From assembly GCA_963719515.1 (NCBI GenBank), contig CAVRCJ010000011.1, positions 128,001 through 192,000 of the forward strand: DNA of 64,000 nucleotides, given 5' to 3'. This document shows, in pieces, positions 1 to 27,287 of this stretch. A program made the position numbers and the translations under genes. This DNA comes from an uncultured cyanobacterium. GTDB taxonomy: Bacteria > Cyanobacteriota > Cyanobacteriia > CAKZMO01. Each line of letters starts with the position of its first letter. The stretch's first letter is position 1. Under the pieces are notes generated by a model. The model ran no database searches and was not told the origin of the DNA. It saw only the letters and a list, made by a program, of their open reading frames with translations.

Positions 1-140
1 CAGCTGCGTCTTGGGAAAACCCCTCACCATTGAGCGAGACTCAGACAACGCCATTGGCCGCTTTTGGGTGCAAGATTTATCTGACGTCAGCGACGTTCGC
101 CTCCGGCTAGAGAGCTATTCTGGGGGGCCAGCAGGGGCGA

Positions 141-1811
141 TTAAAGATCTCCCTTTAGTCTCTCCTCGTGAACGACCGGCAGTCCGCTGAGCCATTCCCT
201 ATCCTCACTGACGTGGGGAAACTTCAGCTGAGCTTCAGTGATGCCGGTTTGAACCATCTGCACTCGAAGCTGCTCGAAGCTCCCGGCGGCAAGAATGCGG
301 AGGCGGGGGGAGGGAATTTGGTCGCGCCGCTTGATGCCGTAAAACTTCTGCACGCTTTTCATGGTCTCGTCAAACTGCTGCAAAAATTGCTGTGGATCAG
401 ACAGCTGTGACCCTGCGGCCACCTCGACATTGACTAGATAGTGGGCCGGAATGGCGTCTTTTGACAGGGTAATGCAAAAATTTTCGAGGTCTACGTCAAG
501 CCGCCGCTGCAGCTGCTGAATCACCTCAACCACGTGGGCCTCTGTCGTTTTCTCGGTCGATGAGGAGATCACCCTGCCCCGCCGATATCTGAACGTCATC
601 AGGGGAGCTTGCTCAAAAAAGCCGTCAATTTCAACCACATCGCCCAAATCGTAGCGGTAGAAGCCGCTGTAATTGGTGAAGACGACTCGGTACTGCTGAC
701 CGGACCGGACCTCGTGGGGGAGAACCGTCTTGGGGGATTCAGCCTCCCACTGCTCTACGGGGATAAACTCCACAAAAGCGCTTTCGATAGCCGGGATAAC
801 GCTATCGGTGTCGAAGTCGTGAGAAATGCCAAGAGCACCTTCGGCGCAGGAATAGGTGCCGCCGAACACGGGCAGATCACCAAAATACTCGGAGAATTTC
901 TCGAAGTAGAAGTCTGAGGTGCCGCCCCGGGCCGTAACCATAAACGACAGGTCAGGCCAGGCCCGCTGAGGCGTGAGTCGGCCATCCGCGCTCAGCACTT
1001 GCTGCAGCTCGGTAGCGCGCTGAGGGGCCGCCGACCATTTTTGCTCTAGACGACGCCTCAGCTCGGGTTCGAGCATTATCCAATCTGCAATCTTTCCCGT
1101 CTTGATGTCTTGAATCATGGAGTCTGCGTGGGTCTCAAGAAACTGACACAGCTGCAGCGCCAGCACCGGGAAGGTGGCCCCAATAGTGCGCAGCCGCCGG
1201 TTGCGCAGCGAAAACAGCAGGCAAACGTAATAGCGGGCTGTAGTTTCTGCGATCTGGAAGGCTTCGAAGGGGTAGGCGAAGATTTGCCGGGACAAAGCGT
1301 CCATCAGCCGCATATCGCTTGTGCTCACGGGGGCAAATTCGATTCCGCTCGGCGTTTGTCCGTGAGACTGAGTGGAGATGGGAAACAGCATCTGCCCGGG
1401 CGGTCGCTTTGCTCGGGCGGCGGCGCCAAAGACGAACCCGACTGCGGCCCGGTTAGCACGAGAGAGGTGGCGGCGCGATCGCTTAGTCACCGGGATCAAT
1501 TTCTTCTTCCCGGTGGACCCGCTGCTGATGTTGAAGTAAATCAGCGGATCGGGAACGAGAACGTTGGGTTCGCCTTCAGCCATGCGCTGGATGTAGGGCT
1601 CGAAGGTGCGGTACGGCTGCACCGGAATCCGCTCGCGGAACTGAGCCACGGTGCTGATGTCGGCTAGGCCATGGTCACGGCCAAACGCCGTGTCTTTGTG
1701 GGCCTCCAAAAGCGATCGCAAAAATTCTTCCTGTGCCGCTTCTAGATGCCCCAATTTTTTGACGAGCTTTCTCCTAGACCGCAGCGCGACGGCCGACAGC
1801 GCCGAGAACAT
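141..1811 (-). CDS. GH3 family acyl-acid amido synthetase (GH3 auxin-responsive promoter family)
   Basis: GH3 motifs ISSGSTGKKKLIP, YSCAE and FYRYDLGD. Start set at ATG 1811, which overlaps the upstream stop (TGATG); the ORF track extends to 1910. Confidence 0.85.
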   Translation of the reverse strand: MFSALSAVALRSRRKLVKKLGHLEAAQEEFLRSLLEAHKDTAFGRDHGLADISTVAQFRERIPVQPYRTFEPYIQRMAEGEPNVLVPDPLIYFNISSGSTGKKKLIPVTKRSRRHLSRANRAAVGFVFGAAARAKRPPGQMLFPISTQSHGQTPSGIEFAPVSTSDMRLMDALSRQIFAYPFEAFQIAETTARYYVCLLFSLRNRRLRTIGATFPVLALQLCQFLETHADSMIQDIKTGKIADWIMLEPELRRRLEQKWSAAPQRATELQQVLSADGRLTPQRAWPDLSFMVTARGGTSDFYFEKFSEYFGDLPVFGGTYSCAEGALGISHDFDTDSVIPAIESAFVEFIPVEQWEAESPKTVLPHEVRSGQQYRVVFTNYSGFYRYDLGDVVEIDGFFEQAPLMTFRYRRGRVISSSTEKTTEAHVVEVIQQLQRRLDVDLENFCITLSKDAIPAHYLVNVEVAAGSQLSDPQQFLQQFDETMKSVQKFYGIKRRDQIPSPRLRILAAGSFEQLRVQMVQTGITEAQLKFPHVSEDREWLSGLPVVHEERLKGDL

Positions 1812-3133
1812 CAAATTTTGCAAAGGTCTCTCCCCATCCGTTCTTTGACAACATCTGCTCGAATCTCGCTGGGCGAAAAGGTCAGTGAAGGCCGGAGGTG
1901 ATGCAAGCAATAGTCTTGCCTGAGCCTATCGATACCGCCACTGGTGATATTGAGCAAAACACTGTCGCCGCGCTCAATTTTTTGGGTCGCGACCGCCTGC
2001 TGAAGCGCGGCGACGGCAACCCCCGACGCCGGGCTAATGTCGATTCCCTCGAGCGCCCGGAAGAGGCGCTGAGCCAAGGCCGCTGCGTCATTTCTCACCC
2101 CATATAGGTGTCCCCTCGTGGCCTTCAGCGCGTCGTATACGCCGCCCTTGAGGGCGTAGGCCGGGCTGCGGTTGGTGAGCACTTTTGCCGCGACGCCTTC
2201 AATCTGCTTTTTTGCGGCGGCTTCACTGACGGGAGCAAGCTGGCGATCGCCCGCAGCCCAGGCGTTTACCATCGGCGCAAACGGTAGGTTCTGAGCGAGA
2301 TGCAGCGTCATCCGGCGCGTCCCAAAGCGGCCATCCTGCAGCAGGCGTAAATTGGCCTCCCAGGCGGAAATGCCCCCTGTGCCCGAGCCCACGGCTTGGA
2401 TATAGTGATCAGGGATATGCCCCAGGGTCACGGCGGCGTCAACGACGGTGAGCCCCATACCGTCGCGCCGCCCCACGTTGGCAGCCCCCCCTTCCGGGAA
2501 GTATCCGTCTAGCTGGCTGATCAGCTGCGCTAGGGCGATCGCATCGGAATAGTCGCCGCCCCCCGCCACAACAACCAGCCGTACGCAGGGGTGGAAGGGG
2601 GCTTGCGACCAGATGGCCTGTAGATTCTGCTCTGGAAGCACTAAGCACAGGGGGATCTCTAAGGCGGAGCAAAGCGTCGCAAACGCGCGGCCCGTATTGC
2701 CAGCGGAGGCCAGTACGAGGGTTCGCGGATGGTCTTTGGGGATACGGGCAAGGACAGCGGGGGCCTCTAGCTCTTTGAAGGAGCCTGTCGTGAGGGAAGC
2801 ATCGCGCTCGGGCCAGTAGCCGTTGAAGCTGATGTACAGATGCTCCAGCCCCAGATACTGCCCCAGCCGAGTACCCTTGTAGGTAATAGGCTTACCCGAA
2901 ACGTCAAGCCAGCGCTCTACGGGAAGCCAGTCGCTAAACTGAAAGACGCCGGGCAGATGAGGATTGACCGTAAGGGCAGTAGCGCGGTAGACGGCCCTTA
3001 AAAGCGCTGGCTCATGGGGAACAGTGCACTTGAGTTGAAATGGATTTGCGCTGTATTCAGCCCCGCACAGCGTACATTGAAGGGTATAGTGAGGCGGTTT
3101 AGCGTTCAAGGACTCTAATCGAACCCTGCCCAT
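1811..3133 (-). CDS. Cysteate synthase (PLP-dependent, threonine synthase-like fold)
   Basis: N-terminal CxxC, LYISFNGYWPE, PLP lysine in GSFKELEA, ASAGNTGRAF, EGGAANVGRRDGMG and QAVGSGTG, all typical of the cysteate synthase subfamily. Confidence 0.8.
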   Translation of the reverse strand: MGRVRLESLNAKPPHYTLQCTLCGAEYSANPFQLKCTVPHEPALLRAVYRATALTVNPHLPGVFQFSDWLPVERWLDVSGKPITYKGTRLGQYLGLEHLYISFNGYWPERDASLTTGSFKELEAPAVLARIPKDHPRTLVLASAGNTGRAFATLCSALEIPLCLVLPEQNLQAIWSQAPFHPCVRLVVVAGGGDYSDAIALAQLISQLDGYFPEGGAANVGRRDGMGLTVVDAAVTLGHIPDHYIQAVGSGTGGISAWEANLRLLQDGRFGTRRMTLHLAQNLPFAPMVNAWAAGDRQLAPVSEAAAKKQIEGVAAKVLTNRSPAYALKGGVYDALKATRGHLYGVRNDAAALAQRLFRALEGIDISPASGVAVAALQQAVATQKIERGDSVLLNITSGGIDRLRQDYCLHHLRPSLTFSPSEIRADVVKERMGRDLCKI

Positions 3134-3254: not shown

Positions 3255-4712
3255 GAAAGCCCCGCGCTGTATGCGCAGCATCAGCGTCGGGATGCAAGCG
3301 AGCGAGTCGCAGACGAGCAATTCTAGGGAGTAACACAACCCCTCCTAAATCTTGCTATAATTGGTACATGCTTACCTTGAACTACTCCTACCGAATCTAT
3401 CCAAGCCTTGAGCAGGAAGCCCGCATGGTGACGTGGCTTGAGACCTGTCGCGGCGTCTACAATTACGCCCTGAGGGAGCGCAAGGACTGGATAAAGTCGA
3501 GAAGCTGTCAGCTCAACGCTTGCTCGCTGCAATCGGAGTACATCATTCCAGCAGACGCGTCTTACCCCAGCTACTACGCTCAAAAGCGATCGCTGACCGC
3601 TGCCAAAAAGCAGTTGCCGCATCTCAAGGACGTGCAATCCCAGGTGCTTCAGGACGTGATAGGACGGGTGGAATCGGCGTTTGCTGCCAGGAAGGAGCGA
3701 GGTCACGGTTTCCCACGCTTTAAGAAGTTTGGGCAGTATCGCTCGTTTCTCTTTCCGCAGTTCAAGGAAAACCCGGTGACGGGTAGCCAAATCAAGCTGC
3801 CAAAGCTGGGAGAGATGCGCATTGTGCTGCATCGTCCCATCCCTGATGGGTTTGCTGTGAAGACGGTGCGCATCATCAAGAAGCATTCGGGGTGGTACGC
3901 TACCCTTTGCATTCAAGCCGATGTCAACGTGCCTGATGCTGTTCCTAGTGGGGCAAGTGTTGGGATTGATGTTGGGCTTGAGTATTTCCTGTCCACTTCC
4001 AACGGTTTGCAGGTCAAGCGACCTCGCTTTTCGGGTAAGCTGCACCGCAAGCTTGAATTGACGAGCGACCCCGCGCCGTCGCACGGCGCTAGGGAACGCG
4101 CGAGTTGCTGCAACGCAGGCTGAAGAACAAGCAAAAGGGGTCGAATAACCGCGCCAAGCTGATACGGAGGATTGGACGGGTGCATGAGCAGATAGCAGCC
4201 TGTCGCCTTGACTGGCAATTCAAGCTGGCCCATAAGCTCTGTGACTATGCCCAGATGATATTTGTGGAAGACATCGACTTCCGCATCATGGCAAAAGGGA
4301 TGCTGGGTAAGCACACCCTGGATGCTGGTCTGGGGCAGTTCGTCAACCAGGTGCTGCCATGGGTGTGCTTCAAGCGTGGTGTCTACTACGGCAAGGTTGA
4401 CCCCTACCGCACCTCTCAGGAATGCCCTGATTGTGGTGCTGCGGTCAAAAAGTCGCTGAGTGATAGGGTTCATCAGTGTCATAGCTGTGGGTCGGTCAAG
4501 CCGAGAGATATAGCTGCTGCCCAAGTCATCAACGCCCGTGGTCTTTCGGGTGTTCAAATTGTCTGTGGAGCCGAGGTAGCGGGGATGTGGGAAACCATAT
4601 CTAGCCAACTGGCTGTGTTCGCGCAGCGTGCGTGTAACGCGAAGCAGGAAACTCATCGGGCGACCGATGAAGCCCGCGCTCTATCCGTAGGATGAGCGTC
4701 GGGAGTATTCAC
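3255..4712 (+). mobile_element. IS200/IS605 family element, IS1341 type (tnpB only, no tnpA)
   Basis: Related subterminal hairpins: left AAGCCCCGCGCTGTATGCGCAGCATCAGCGTCGGG (~3258-3291) and right AAGCCCGCGCTCTATCCGTAGGATGAGCGTCGGGAGTATTCAC (to 4712). They enclose tnpB. The left boundary is approximate. Confidence 0.8.
3368..4695 (+). pseudogene. tnpB: TnpB RNA-guided endonuclease, frameshifted by a 47-bp insertion at 4061-4107
   Basis: N-terminal YRIYP region; RuvC residues in GIDVG, FVED and PRDIAAA; Zn finger CPDCG/CHSCG. Split into ORFs 3368-4123 and 4105-4695; removing 4061-4107 gives one 426-aa frame. Confidence 0.85.
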
Positions 4713-21550: not shown

Positions 21551-21841
21551 GCTCTCGGGTAAATCAACAAGTAAAACGGGGAGCGGTGGATATCGGTGGA
21601 TATCAAATTAATGATTCTTCAAGATCCTAATGCCAGTATATCGCTGCATCGACAATCCGCAGACAATCTGCGGCGTTCATTGGCCGTGAAGGTTGCGGCG
21701 GAAGAGGCTATCTAGATGGCCTTTTAGGTGAAGGGCTATCTAGTGCTGCGGCGTAGCGTATGAGATGCTGAGGCAAGATCAAATCCCTTTAGACGCTACA
21801 ACAGCATTACGCTCACCAGATCTGTAGGACGGTCGACTGTC

Positions 21842-22696
21842 ATGCAAATCCCCCGCTTTCCTGAGTGCTACCACGCTCTCGTCGAGGATGCCTTGAGCCA
21901 CGACGACCAAACCCTGCTGCGCCAGCTGCAGCGGCACCCGGAATCAGGGCGCTGCTTCGTGGCGCTGTTCTGTCGCTATAGCCCGCTGGTCTACAGCCTG
22001 ATTCGCCACGCCACCCAATCTTCTGTCCAAGTGGACTATCTATTTGCTCAAACCTGGAAACAGATCTATCAAGATTTGCAGGACGTCAGTCCGGAGTCCT
22101 TTGGTGAAGGTAGCCCTGACGAAGGGATGGAGACGGCTGCAGAGGGCAGCGCTGGGGAGGTCAAGGCGGCCCTGAGCCCCAATACCATCAGTCCCAATAT
22201 CGCTAGCACCAGCAGCGCTAGCCCCGACAGAAGGGAGAGCAGTGGAGCAGGCACGGGCAAGGTAGGCGCAGACGGAATAGCCAATAGCGGGGGCGATCGC
22301 CGACCCCGCTTAGCCAGCGACTTTACCGGCAACGTTTCGACCCCAATGACGCTGCAAAATTGGATCATCGATATCGCGGCTCGCTATATTCGAGAAGCTC
22401 CCCCTGAAGCTGACCAAATTCGCTACTCACTGACCTACGCGCCGCCGCCGCTGTGGTGCTACCTGGAGCGATCGCTAGAGCAGCTCTCTCCGGTCCACCG
22501 GTTAGTCGTGGTGCTCCACAAGCGGTTTGGCTGGTCCTTAGAAGAAGTGGCGAGCCACTTGGCCTCAACCGGAATGGAGGTCGATACCGCAGCTGTTATA
22601 ACGTTACTGGGAGAAGGCTATGACCAAATCGACGAGTCGCTACCGCAAGATATCCGTGAGATCTACTTAGAGCCCTCAGCGGCCCGACCCCTGTAA
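21842..22696 (+). CDS. Cyanobacterial ECF/sigma-70-like protein with low-complexity internal insert
   Basis: Region-2-like FCRYSPLVYSL and region-4-like LSPVHRLVVVL...WSLEEVA. Confidence 0.55.
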   Translation: MQIPRFPECYHALVEDALSHDDQTLLRQLQRHPESGRCFVALFCRYSPLVYSLIRHATQSSVQVDYLFAQTWKQIYQDLQDVSPESFGEGSPDEGMETAAEGSAGEVKAALSPNTISPNIASTSSASPDRRESSGAGTGKVGADGIANSGGDRRPRLASDFTGNVSTPMTLQNWIIDIAARYIREAPPEADQIRYSLTYAPPPLWCYLERSLEQLSPVHRLVVVLHKRFGWSLEEVASHLASTGMEVDTAAVITLLGEGYDQIDESLPQDIREIYLEPSAARPL

Positions 22697-22882
22697 ACCA
22701 GCGATAAACCAATCACCAAACTTGATGGGGGAGCGATCGCATTGTGCGGTGCAGCCGCCTGTTCAATAGTATCAATAGTAAAGAATAAGCCAGTGAGCAA
22801 GCTGCCGCAGGACTAGGGCGATCGCCCTAGCTAAGAACGCCTCACTGCACCAGAACTCGACTAAGGAAATCTGAATTACGCT

Positions 22883-23221
22883 ATGGCAAAGTACTTTTTC
22901 TTATCAGATGGTTGGACGGTAGGTCGGGTTTGGGAGCTCGGTGGGCTTTGGAACGAAACCGCTTGGCGACGCAAGCCTCAAATTCAGCAGCTTAATCTTC
23001 GCATTCGCGAAGCGGACGAGCAGCTGTGGCTCTATCAGGTGGAGGATGCCATCTTGATGGTGGAAGTTAAGCCGGGTGAGACGATATCTGCCGACGCTAT
23101 TGGTCAGGTGGTACTCAAGCGCCTGATGGACGCCGAGAAGGTAATAGAGCTGCTGTGCCTGAGCCAAGAGAGTCAGGGAGGTGATCTCGCGAAGGCCAAC
23201 TACTCGACCCTCCAAGTTTAG
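22883..23221 (+). CDS. Hypothetical protein (looks like a conserved cyanobacterial family)
   Basis: Clean ORF with AAGGA upstream; MAKYFFLSDGW..GRVWE.GGLW. Confidence 0.65.
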   Translation: MAKYFFLSDGWTVGRVWELGGLWNETAWRRKPQIQQLNLRIREADEQLWLYQVEDAILMVEVKPGETISADAIGQVVLKRLMDAEKVIELLCLSQESQGGDLAKANYSTLQV

Positions 23222-23341
23222 AGAAGATGGGTTTCGCCCAGTACCCGGCGCTTTAGGAGTTTGAGAGGTGGCCGTCTGCCGAAGAGCAGCGCCACCTCTC
23301 AAGAGGACTCAGAAACTGCGCTACGCAAGGGCCTGCAGCCC

Positions 23342-25394
23342 CTAGATATTGCCGGGGGGAATGTCTGCCAGGTTGTTGTCCGGCAAATTGCTCACAGCGC
23401 GCTGAATTGAGACTAAAGCGCGGTTGTATCCCAGCACGGCATTTACCAAGTTGGCCTCAGCTTCCGTGAGGTCTGTCTGCGCCTGGATCACGTCCGACTG
23501 AATTCCCACCCCAGCCTGGAACCTCAGGCGAGCCAGCCGCAGCGACTCTTCTGCCAGCCGGACGGCTGCTTGAGCCGTCGTAATGTTTTCGAAGTTTGAC
23601 TCTAGACCAAAAAAGGCCTGCTCGACCTCAAAGCGGATAGACTCGCGGGTGTCTGCAAACGTTGTCTCTGCAATCTCGCGGTCTATGCGCTCCTGTCTCG
23701 CCCTAGCCCTTGATGCGCCGCCGTCGAAGAAAAGCCAGTCGAGCTGTGCGCCGATAGAAAACGAATCGCTGTCTCCACTGCTAAACCCCTGATCTTGGTC
23801 GACCTCGTCTATTAACTCCTGCACTTGATACTGCGCTACTAGAGAAAGCTGAGGTAGAGTGCCGGATCGCGCCACCCGCTGCTGCTGACGATCGATCTCG
23901 CGCTGTACGAGCTGCTGCTCAAGCTCAGCGCGGTTCTTATAGGCCAGCGTTAGGCTCTCTGATAGGGAAAGCTGCCACTGCCCGGCAATATTCACTGGGT
24001 CCGCCGCCGTCAGGTTAACGCCAGGGGGCAAGCTCAACAGCTCAACGAGCTGTCGCTGGTTAATCAGCTGGTTGCTAATCGAATTGCGTAACTCTTGGCG
24101 GGCATTGGCAACTTCTACTTGGGCCTGAAGCCTATCAAACCGCGTTCCTACGCCGGCGCGCTCTCGGGCCGCCGCGTCGCGAAAACTAATTAGCGCTTCG
24201 TCTAAATTGTCGCGGTTGATGCGAACGGTTTCGTCAGCTTCTTGGATGTCGTAATACGCTTGGGTAACGTTGAGCTGTATTTCTTCGGCGATGACCTCTA
24301 GCTGCAGCGCCTGGAGGCGCTGCGCCTCGCGAGCGGCTCTGATGTTGCCCTGACGCGCGCCTGAGGTAAACAGGTCGTAGCTTAAGGCGACGGTACCTGT
24401 CAACGTGCTGTTGGTCTGAGAATCACGTTCTGATTCGAAAGAGGGATTGAAGGGGTCGTCGCTGCTGTTGACGGTAGTAGACTGATTTGTCGTCGTACGA
24501 TTCAAAGCGCCGGTAGTGCTGAGGCTTGGAAACCGCTGGGCCCGAGCTTCCCTCACCTGAGCTTGAGCCCGCTCAAACTGAAGCTGGGCATTTTGTAGGT
24601 CGCGGCTGTTGCGGTAGGAAACCTGCAGCGCCTGCTCAAGGGTAACGGGAATGTTCTCGGTGACCTCCAGGGTTTCTGGATCGGTCGGAAAGAACAGCGG
24701 ATTCGCAGGGGCGCGCAAAATCTCTAGAACGGTCTGCACCGTTTGGGAGAGGTCGTCATCGGCGTCGACATCCGCCTGAGGGACGTCAGCTCATCCGCTG
24801 GGGTACGTCAGCTTCGACCTCAGGATCGCCGCTTGGGTCTGCAAGATCCGCATCATCTAGATCGAGGGGCTGGGAGAGGGGGTCATCGTCATCGAAAGCC
24901 TCGACCTCACCGGCACTGCCTTCATCTAAGAACTCTTCCACTGACTCTAGGTCGGCCTCCTCGGCGGCTTCAACCTCGTCTTCTACCCCTAACTCGTCCG
25001 GGTCATCGTTGATTAGCGGGGTAGACTCAGCGCTTGGATCTGAATTGGCGGGATTGGAACCGGGGTCAAGGGGTATACTGTCGCCGGTCGGCTCTTCGGC
25101 TTGAGCCAAGTCAAACCCTGCCAGCGGGCGATCGCCAATTCGATAGACGACGTTGACAGACTCTGGGGAGGTATCGAAGGCTGGGGAACCAGAGAGTGCA
25201 GCGCTCGGGACTGTAGCGTGAGGCGACGCATCAGCGATCCAAACGACAGGCTTTTGAGAGGGTAGCTTCAAAGCCTCAGTTGGGCTTGACTCGGGTACTG
25301 GAGGGGCATCAGACTGGGCATTTGCCAGACCAGCTGGTCCAAGTATGACCGCTGCACTGATGCCAATGGCGATAACGTTGCTATGAGCTTGCAT
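23342..25394 (-). CDS. tolC: TolC-family outer-membrane efflux protein, split by a frameshift at ~24790
   Basis: ORF 24786-25394 carries the signal peptide and acidic linker; ORF 23342-24739 carries two OEP repeats. The junction lies in a ~24-nt tandem duplication. Confidence 0.8.
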
Positions 25395-25799
25395 ACTGCT
25401 GTCGTCTCAACGATCTGTAAGAAGGTAACCAGTCGGCGGCTGTGGTCGTGGGTTGTAGAAACAACCTTATGCAGAATATCGGTCACAAGCGAATTTGGCA
25501 ATTTTTACAGTGCCCCATATTCGGACGGCGTGCCTCACCCTACTCGGTGATCTTCGCACTTTCGCGCTCTAGATATACTGGTCAATTTAGCGTTATAGGA
25601 CCGTGAGTAGCCGTGATTGCAATCGCAGGATTACACAAAGGGGAATCCCAGTCGTCAGCGACTCAATGACCTATTCAAACTTCAGATACTTACAAAACGA
25701 CTAGTTGCTGGGCAGGATAGTTTCTTCTCCGGCTGACGAATTAGGGCTTGAGCGGGGTAAACCTTGGGACCACTGGGCTTGATTTAGCGTGACTCAAGG

Positions 25800-27287
25800 C
25801 TATAGGTTGCCAAATCCTTTCTTTTTCTTGCTCTTCTTTTTCTTCTTGCTCCCTTTCGCACCTTGATAGCCTCGCCATCCCGGCATACCGCCGCCTGCGC
25901 CAGGCATGTCGCCGCCCATACCGGGCATCCCACCACCAAACATGCCGCCCATACCGGGCATGCCGCCACCCATGCCGGGCATCCCCATTTGCCCCTGCCC
26001 CATTTGCTGCATCAGCGATCGCATCTTCTGAAAGTCGCTGACCAGCTTGCTGACGTCGTTGATGTCATAGCCGGCCCCGCGAGCAATGCGGCTGCGGCGG
26101 CTCGGGGACCCTGACAGGAGTTCGGGGTTGCGCCGCTCCTCTAGCGTCATGGACTTAATCATCGCCTCTGCCCGCTTGAGCTGCGTTTCCCCCTGCTGAA
26201 GCTGGTCCCCCGAGATCTTGTTCATGCCAGGAATCATCTTGGCAATTCCGCCCAACGATCCCATCGTCTTGAGCAGGCGCGTTTGCTTAAGAAAATCATT
26301 GAAGTCAAACTGAGCCGACAGGATCTTCTCCTGCATCTTTTCGGCTTCCACCATGTCGACTTCTTCTTGAGCCTTTTCCACCAGGGTGAGCACGTCGCCC
26401 ATTCCCAAGATGCGAGAGGCCATACGGTCAGGGTAGAAGGGCTGCAGCGCCTCTACTTTTTCCCCCACGCCAATAAATTTGATGGGCTGCCCCGAGATGC
26501 TGCGCACGGAAAGGGCCGCCCCCCCTCGCGTGTCGCCGTCCATCTTCGTCAAAATCGCGCCCGTCACCCCAATCTCATCGTGGAACGTGCGGGTGAGGGT
26601 GGCCGCCTCCTGGCCGGTCATTGCGTCAACAACCAGCAGCGTATCGTGGGGCTGTACTGCCTTCTTGACCTTGGCCAGCTCGGCCATCATCGCTTGGTCA
26701 ATTTGCAGTCGACCCGCCGTGTCGATAATCACCGTGTCGACGCCATCGGCCTTAGCCTTCTCAACGCCCTGACGGGCAATTTCGACGGGGTCAGCGTCTG
26801 AGCCCAGCTCAAACACCGGCACGTTGATTTGCTTACCCAAAGTCACCAGCTGGTCGATGGCGGCAGGGCGATACACGTCTGTAGCCACCAGGAGCGCACT
26901 GCGGTCTTGCTTGCGCAGGTGCAGCGCCAGCTTAGCTGAGGCCGTGGTTTTTCCTGTTCCCTGCAGACCCGCCATCAGCACAATGGTGGGGCCGGGGTCA
27001 GCCTGCGCGAGGGGAACGCCCGTCTCCCCCATAACGGACATAAGCTCATCGTGGACGATTTTGATGAACTGTTGGTCGGGGCGTACCCCTGCGACCACTT
27101 CAGCGCCCTGGGCCTTGACCTTGACCTGGGCGACAAATTCTTTGACCACCTGGAGGTTGACATCTGCCTCTAGTAGGGCTCGGCGCACCTCCCGGAGCGC
27201 CTCCTGAATATTTGACTCGGAGATTTTGTCTTGACCCCGGAGGGTTTTCCAAGCGGATTCCAGCCGATCTGAAAGGGCTTCAAACAT
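25800..27287 (-). CDS. ffh: Signal recognition particle protein Ffh
   Basis: GLQGTGKTT, DTAGR, TKMDGD and a Met/Gly-rich M domain. Confidence 0.97.
   Translation of the reverse strand: MFEALSDRLESAWKTLRGQDKISESNIQEALREVRRALLEADVNLQVVKEFVAQVKVKAQGAEVVAGVRPDQQFIKIVHDELMSVMGETGVPLAQADPGPTIVLMAGLQGTGKTTASAKLALHLRKQDRSALLVATDVYRPAAIDQLVTLGKQINVPVFELGSDADPVEIARQGVEKAKADGVDTVIIDTAGRLQIDQAMMAELAKVKKAVQPHDTLLVVDAMTGQEAATLTRTFHDEIGVTGAILTKMDGDTRGGAALSVRSISGQPIKFIGVGEKVEALQPFYPDRMASRILGMGDVLTLVEKAQEEVDMVEAEKMQEKILSAQFDFNDFLKQTRLLKTMGSLGGIAKMIPGMNKISGDQLQQGETQLKRAEAMIKSMTLEERRNPELLSGSPSRRSRIARGAGYDINDVSKLVSDFQKMRSLMQQMGQGQMGMPGMGGGMPGMGGMFGGGMPGMGGDMPGAGGGMPGWRGYQGAKGSKKKKKSKKKKGFGNL

Follow-up and report, generated by a model that had tools for sequence, protein, structure and literature searches.

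A conserved cysteate synthase and GH3 ligase gene pair in cyanobacteria with a predicted cysteate amide product

Two neighbouring open reading frames (ORFs) on the minus strand, one for a cysteate synthase and one for an acyl-acid amido synthetase of the GH3 family, lie near the left end of the window, which is the whole 64,000-nucleotide stretch of DNA analysed here from an uncultured cyanobacterium (assembly GCA_963719515.1, contig CAVRCJ010000011.1, positions 128,001 to 192,000; C11:128001-192000 of genome G000 in our numbering). The assembly comprises 5.28 Mb and is rated 100% complete. The cysteate synthase gene (1811–3133, minus strand) encodes a fold-type II, pyridoxal phosphate (PLP)-dependent enzyme of 440 aa, P0002, recognized by its matches to TIGR03844 and PDB 9K3C, and the GH3 gene, with its 3' end at 141, encodes P0001, recognized from its Pfam domains and an AlphaFold model. 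The GC content of the pair (0.587) is close to that of the genome (0.57), and the nearest named records with the same cysteate synthase gene are from Elainellaceae cyanobacteria at 71–74% identity.

Comparison of start positions over 32 loci indicates that the GH3 gene probably begins at TTG 1823 (141–1823, minus strand; 560 aa) rather than at ATG 1811 (556 aa). Among 31 homologues, the start codon aligned to TTG 1823 in 25, lay one codon later in five and one codon earlier in one, and the closest relative (G003) has a GTG aligned to TTG 1823, which likewise gives a 13-nt overlap, and lacks a start codon where ATG 1811 aligns. A first-pass annotation of this DNA had read TGATG (1813–1809) as a coupled stop and start; these letters are present, but the homologue alignment favours the TTG, so that the cysteate synthase gene probably shares its last 13 nt with the beginning of the GH3 gene (1811–1823, minus strand). 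Six nucleotides 5' of TTG 1823, within the cysteate synthase gene, lies a Shine-Dalgarno-like word, GGAG (1830–1833, minus strand), which may function as such. Of the 26 directly adjacent same-strand pairs that we measured, only two overlap and 24 are spaced by 22–264 nt; the suggested translational coupling thus fits this locus but is confined to this genus, whereas adjacency of the two genes is general.

The hidden Markov model (HMM) comparison between cysteate synthase and threonine synthase (ThrC) agrees with the earlier naming of the PLP enzyme. P0002 scored 491.1 bits on TIGR03844, exceeding the equivalog cut-off of 324.9 by 166 bits, and stayed below the cut-offs of two threonine synthase models (73.4 vs 303 and 31 vs 167.1 bits). 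Using phmmer, we obtained an almost gap-free match of residues 13–429 to PDB 9K3C ('Cysteate synthase'; 427 bits, E 7e-127), whereas solved threonine synthases scored below 39 bits. Each of the 72 aligned relatives has K120, G145, N146, R223, G249, G251, G253 and Q281, a set that covers the glycine-rich loop; K120, located in an SFKE motif, is presumably the PLP lysine. Members of this family convert O-phosphoserine and sulfite to L-cysteate, and by family function P0002 likely does the same. A separate thrC, above its own cut-off, lies elsewhere in this genome (C3:497674-498657), and we found no match in the genome to the comDE sulfopyruvate decarboxylase, searched with TIGR03845 and a Nitrospirota ComDE-like protein. 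Therefore, neither threonine nor coenzyme M synthesis explains P0002, and we rejected both its identity as a threonine synthase, given the ThrC scores, and a coenzyme M route.

P0001 carries the N-terminal, middle and C-terminal GH3 domains (PF03321, GH3; PF23571, GH3_M; PF23572, GH3_C), and its AlphaFold model (predicted local distance difference test, pLDDT, 88.8; predicted template modelling score, pTM, 0.84) matched plant GH3 structures in a Foldseek search with template modelling (TM) scores of up to 0.89 at 20–24% identity. All three nucleotide-binding motifs described for GH3 enzymes and for the bacterial GH3 enzyme OlsH (PMC12493201) are present, at residues 96–104, 319–324 and 383–391, and the call of the second gene as a GH3 amido-synthetase thus stands on domains, fold and motifs alike. 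A C-domain lysine, K421, is found in 45 of 45 aligned GH3s and, judging from the alignment, would correspond to plant Lys428/435. P0001 is not an OlsH, as it scored 111.8 bits on the OlsH model NF052613, far below the cut-off of 620. This genome has a second GH3 gene (C1:9617-11263; L137 8106-9785), 54% identical to P0001 and with no cysteate synthase nearby, which probably uses another amine.

Conservation of the pair was assessed in a sample of the class, where 27 of 401 genomes encode cysteate synthase (26 over the cut-off), and in three families searched deeper (6 of 90, 9 of 57 and 6 of 48 genomes), yielding 36 distinct cysteate synthase genomes. In line with the expected conservation in other genomes, a GH3 gene lies within one gene of the cysteate synthase at 34 of these 36 cyanobacterial loci: immediately 3' of it and in the same orientation in 27, in a head-to-head arrangement in one (G262) and with one gene between in six. 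One of the remaining two loci has no GH3 (G443) and the other meets a contig end (G463). The genes flanking the pair change from genus to genus, and the link survives inversion. Searching 154 loci of more distant relatives (74 archaeal or Nitrospirota and 80 metagenomic, many of them short and without taxonomy) with a GH3 profile yielded no match; a comDE-like gene stands beside the cysteate synthase at 42 of the 74, and an alpha-oxoamine synthase at 1 of the 80.

Quick trees were built for the GH3s (leaving out G390 and G084, present as pieces of <500 aa, and G004), and a tree of the cysteate synthases left out G016 and G463 (<380 aa) and G004. A single clade of cysteate-synthase-linked GH3s was rejected by the approximately unbiased (AU) test (p = 4.8e-5; 45 rows, 31 linked vs 14), so the link was either re-made with different GH3 copies or kept while others lost it. 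For the cysteate synthases, a single cyanobacterial clade was not rejected (AU p = 0.79), and the two separate origins hinted at by a quick tree are therefore unsupported. A few individual loci deviate. In G279 (L154 7641-10782), cysteate synthase and GH3 both sit on long branches (0.7 and 0.8–1.1), as if they had diverged together. In G390 (L159 4988-6668), the GH3 behind the cysteate synthase is in several pieces, and two intact GH3 genes stand in tandem elsewhere. In G443 (L164 7859-10281), an amidase-like gene, labelled from its sequence by eye, takes the place of the GH3, and the contig ends inside it. At four Nitrospirota loci (L044, L045, L046 and L108), a comDE-like gene directly follows the cysteate synthase; genes near such loci look to us like methyltransferase and corrinoid protein genes, and a bacterial coenzyme M route is possible there.

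Variants of the pair suggest which amine the ligase accepts. In family f14, five loci share the order cysteate synthase, DedA, GH3 and group II decarboxylase. The best PDB match of this decarboxylase is mouse CSAD (363.8 bits), ahead of GAD (344.1 bits), and in 5 of 5 copies it shows F-X19-S-X-A, i.e. two of the three positions of the CSAD signature F/W-X19-S-X-Y (preprint 10.64898/2026.08.27.747329). At a single locus, in G391, a gene for an Asp/Glu-family racemase lies between cysteate synthase and GH3; its product passes a general amino acid racemase model and has the cysteate racemase CuyB as its best NCBIfam match (127.9 bits, under the cut-off of 190). Taken together, these variants suggest L-cysteate, taurine or D-cysteate as acceptors of the respective GH3s. 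If the variant enzymes act on cysteate, each would leave an amine, which suits an amide ligase. In this genome, we found no CSAD-type decarboxylase (the best match is just 27–32% identical) and no match in a search for racemase homologues, and L-cysteate is therefore the acceptor expected here. An unlinked decarboxylase with the full W-X19-S-X-Y signature occurs in G003 (L175 8435-9904).

The acid partner was approached through gene content. We counted co-occurrence among 61 relatives, leaving out GH3 matches below ~45% identity (including a 26% match in G039), and found an alpha-oxoamine synthase resembling serine palmitoyltransferase (SPT) in 34, a GNAT protein in 33, this GH3 subfamily in 31 and a close Rieske orthologue in 32 (at least 55% identity; 43 match at the E-value set). 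The SPT-like gene is present in 31 of 31 GH3-positive genomes, and GH3 occurs in none of the 27 genomes without it. Within the 48 genomes of family f18, two of which are also in the sample of 61, 18 have both GH3 and the SPT-like gene, three have GH3 only (G136, G271 and G478) and 27 have neither. A strict dependence between the Rieske gene and GH3 was not supported: G025 and G051 have GH3 without a close Rieske orthologue, and G037, G042 and G060 show the reverse. GH3 genes of the subfamily also lie in or beside a cluster of SPT-like, Rieske and MFS genes (G029, G040, G056, G326 and G391) or within ~5 kb of the SPT-like gene (G032, G215, G370, G476 and G477), and genes that also recur nearby encode an OlsC-like hydroxylase, fatty acid hydroxylases, Mpo1-like, DedA and PAP2 proteins and an HpnI-like glycosyltransferase.

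The SPT-like synthase, Rieske oxygenase, MFS protein, OlsC-like hydroxylase, GNAT and NAD-dependent reductase form a module that is co-inherited in 32–34 of the 61 sampled cyanobacteria. In this genome it is split between C3 at ~21,700–26,900 (L173 5666-10933), where the SPT-like gene occupies C3:25637-26905, and C6:387410-389493, with the GNAT and reductase genes on C6; it is also seen at L142, L144, L146, L162, L174 and L176. From gene arrangement, we tentatively label the GNAT as bCerS and the reductase as CerR; an ESM Atlas search with the GNAT returned generic GNAT clusters only. The SPT-like protein stays below the cut-offs for SPT, BioF and Kbl alike, its best PDB match being a bacterial SPT and its best NCBIfam model BioF. 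The best model of the Rieske protein, below its cut-off, is the sterol methyl oxidase SdmA, an enzyme that makes carboxylates. The bacterial ceramide pathway consists of Spt, bCerS and CerR (PMC11334938), and the module resembles it in combining an alpha-oxoamine synthase with a GNAT and an NAD-dependent reductase, whose genes are often neighbours, and differs in that the cyanobacterial synthase falls under all of the above cut-offs and in that the pathway passages of PMC11334938 name no GH3. The module is a candidate for a cyanobacterial ceramide-type pathway in its own right. As of 2022, just two ceramides had been reported from cyanobacteria, one of them from Moorea producens (PMC8895605), a species that encodes this cysteate synthase.

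Some further lipid-type genes were seen in passing. This genome holds a second alpha-oxoamine synthase domain (C8:111357-112388), inside an ORF of 2692 aa, with counterparts in G003 and G326. At L163, L169, L170 and L172, the pair is near an HpnI-like glycosyltransferase or other hopanoid-type genes (the L163 gene being the one scanned), and an HpnI-like search in this genome gave no match.

The family identity of both proteins, their intact motifs and their conserved linkage are established, and the pair is a real two-gene unit of correctly identified enzymes whose product is likely an undescribed cysteate amide, most likely a lipid. On balance, we consider it fairly probable, if well short of certain, that the two enzymes act as one unit that makes cysteate and joins it through an amide to a lipid acid, giving a predicted N-acyl-cysteate sulfono-aminolipid. 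By analogy with its family, P0002 would first exchange the phosphate of O-phosphoserine for sulfite in a PLP-dependent reaction that forms L-cysteate. The GH3, to judge from fold and motifs, would then adenylate a carboxylic acid with ATP, and the amine of cysteate would attack the acyl-AMP to form the amide, as the linkage and the variant operons suggest. That the acid is a lipid is the least certain step, suggested by the OlsH precedent and the lipid-gene context; the likeliest candidates are (hydroxy) fatty acids and a product of the SPT-like, GNAT, reductase and Rieske module that bears a carboxylate, and we lean towards the latter. The first-pass annotation had proposed an N-acyl- or N-aroyl-cysteate, either a sulfono-aminolipid or a signal conjugate. 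The amide conjugate gains support from the decarboxylase and racemase variants and from OlsH, and the aroyl or signal form is less favoured than the lipid because the GH3 subfamily co-occurs and co-localizes with the sphingolipid-like module.

Several observations weigh against a cysteate-linked lipid. Three of the 21 GH3-positive genomes of family f18 have no detected SPT-like gene, and two of them are 99–100% complete. Among 120 neighbour proteins scanned with Pfam (one for each cluster, most of them no more than two genes away from the pair), no alpha/beta-hydrolase O-acyltransferase of the OlsI type recurs, and across the main clade the pair lacks a conserved third gene beside it. The third CSAD signature position is Ala, not Tyr, in the linked decarboxylase. 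G443 has cysteate synthase, DedA and an amidase-like gene at the locus, with its GH3 on another contig, and the sampled genomes are kin, so that the counts overstate independence. The acceptor also cannot be read from the GH3 pocket. At the position of plant Lys146, which we equate with K158 of 4B2G, P0001 has Q148, and the main clade has N, K or Q; at ~22% identity, this plant marker is weak. In plant GH3s, Lys146 has been tied to acidic amino acid acceptors (PMC6073592). No invariant basic residue of the linked GH3s is wholly absent from the unlinked set: R113, R133 and R175 come closest, with K or R also standing at these positions in 6–7 of the 14 unlinked GH3s, and no clear sulfonate-binding residue diagnostic of the linked copies emerged.

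Among the alternatives, an unlikely one follows the route to capnine. Here the SPT-like synthase would condense cysteate with an acyl chain, comparable to CFAT/CapB of Bacteroidota, and the GH3 would N-acylate the sulfonated long-chain base, or carry out another step, towards a sulfono-sphingolipid. Bacteroidota have an established Cys-CFAT-KCR route (PMC11211663). Of the 19 genomes with cysteate synthase that were tested, 18, this one included, carry the SPT-like gene, and the pair and the SPT-like cluster face each other in G391. However, the SPT-like gene is single-copy and its product similar (~68–83% to the G391 protein) with or without a cysteate synthase, the cysteate synthase never adjoins it without an intervening GH3, and the module already has a GNAT that could perform N-acylation. 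An alpha-oxoamine synthase must release the carboxyl of its substrate, and taurine, the predicted product of the decarboxylase variant, has none. The capnine route is thus weakened, as the SPT-like gene is the same regardless of cysteate synthase and taurine could not enter it.

We judge it similarly doubtful that the GH3 couples cysteate with a small acid of non-lipid type (aromatic, indolic or short-chain) to yield a soluble conjugate for signalling, storage or detoxification, as in plants. The closest solved relatives of P0001 are plant enzymes that conjugate auxin, jasmonate and benzoate, and no lipid gene is conserved next to the pair in the main clade; yet these plant matches are only 20–24% identical, the PDB match list contains no bacterial GH3, and the recurring neighbours of the subfamily are of lipid type (SPT-like, GNAT, OlsC-like, Mpo1-like, DedA, PAP2 and HpnI-like, among others). 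It is more improbable that an enzyme of the cysteate synthase fold uses another nucleophile and that the GH3 accepts a different beta-substituted alanine. We found no assayed cyanobacterial member in the literature searched, and the cyanobacterial clades sit on their own stems in the tree, but the margin over the equivalog cut-off, the near gap-free alignment to a solved cysteate synthase and the CSAD-like and CuyB-like partners, which both indicate cysteate, argue against it. A threonine or coenzyme M role with the GH3 as a chance neighbour, for which the comDE-like neighbours in Archaea and Nitrospirota would speak, is largely refuted by the missing comD match in a complete genome, the separate thrC and a link kept at 34 of 36 loci despite changing flanks and inversion.

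The predicted cysteate lipid unit can be set against several known systems. The ornithine-lipid pathway OlsH/OlsI in Singulisphaera acidiphila shows that N-acyl amino lipids can be formed by a bacterial GH3, the lyso-ornithine lipid synthetase OlsH, with free fatty acid and ATP as substrates; OlsH was active in extracts and not within E. coli cells (PMC12493201). OlsH and P0001 share the three nucleotide-binding motifs and an ATP-dependent amide formation between an acid and an amino acid; unlike OlsH, P0001 is linked to a gene predicted to supply a non-proteinogenic sulfonate acceptor and not to an OlsI acyltransferase. The section of that paper on the distribution of OlsH names no cyanobacteria, although GH3s from the phylum may be among the homologues that it lists. 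According to a review (PMC12971839), no ornithine lipid has been identified in cyanobacteria. In the capnine pathway of Bacteroidota, phosphoserine-derived cysteate likewise feeds a sulfonate lipid (PMC11211663), but there an alpha-oxoamine synthase makes a C–C bond, whereas in the present pair a GH3 amide ligase takes the place of the conserved partner, and variants add a decarboxylase or racemase. The sulfur-bearing aminolipid (SAL) of roseobacters is comparable as a lipid of aquatic bacteria (PMC8319176); SalA, in contrast, is a PlsC-family acyltransferase, and the abstract names neither a GH3 nor a cysteate synthase.

The cysteate synthase of the methanogen coenzyme M route, reportedly treated by Graham and colleagues in 2009, belongs to the same family (TIGR03844; PDB 9K3C/9K3O) and matches over its full length, and there the partner is comDE rather than a GH3. 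A comparable case is cerilipin, a taurine-amidated ornithine lipid of Gluconacetobacter cerinus for which the enzyme and gene of the ATP-dependent taurine transfer are unknown (PMC12971839): a sulfonate amine is placed on a lipid carboxylate in an ATP-dependent manner, the reaction predicted here, chiefly for the decarboxylase variant. We found no description of a unit of cysteate synthase and GH3 in the openly accessible literature that we searched.

Both proteins belong to known families, and the pairing is the new part. The familiar sulfur lipid of cyanobacteria is sulfoquinovosyl diacylglycerol (SQDG), and, judging from the pair, ~7% of sampled species (27 of 401) are predicted to have a second sulfonate lipid, one free of phosphorus. 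If this is correct, bacterial GH3 chemistry would reach past ornithine to a purpose-made sulfonate acceptor, and the pair would represent a candidate enzyme class for taurine or cysteate amidation of lipids. As cultured strains carry the cysteate synthase (Moorena producens) or the pair (Vasconcelosia minhoensis LEGE 07310), the product can be sought directly. A broader and distinctly speculative view, to which we give a low probability, is that a large group of cyanobacteria makes a sphingolipid-like membrane lipid with a free carboxylate, on which GH3s act as swappable head-group ligases; depending on whether cysteate synthase is recruited by itself or together with a racemase or a decarboxylase, the products would be amides of L-cysteate, D-cysteate or taurine, respectively. 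Were it true, these would be a new class of cyanobacterial sulfonolipids, and the GH3s would be the first gene family known to attach sulfonate amines to lipids at the expense of ATP, which is still an orphan reaction in the case of cerilipin.

The 3' end of a plus-strand ORF of 224 aa (window 1–190; L001 15516-16190) converges on the GH3 gene and overlaps it by 50 nt; it gave no match in a Pfam scan, it adjoins the pair solely in G000 and G003 in the neighbourhood comparison, and it is not part of the unit. A third minus-strand gene had been suspected from ATG 54. Inspection of the DNA left of the window revealed a frame of just 18 codons, with its stop barely past the window edge and lying antisense inside the 224-aa ORF, and we therefore dropped it. 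A downstream desaturase (L001 14151-14984) and an upstream tnpB were also rejected as members of the unit, being not conserved beside the pair. Scans for promoters and terminators gave about as many matches as expected by chance (1 vs 1.4 and 4 vs 3.9). The tnpB-family gene (3368–4695, plus strand) diverges from the cysteate synthase gene and is broken into two frames near 4050–4123; elsewhere in the genome it has ~10 near-full-length relatives at ~80% identity and an identical 465-nt piece on C19. Further left of the window (L001 3-3800, plus strand), a long protein is encoded that by inspection combines a coiled-coil-like stretch with ~16 near-identical WD40-like repeats.

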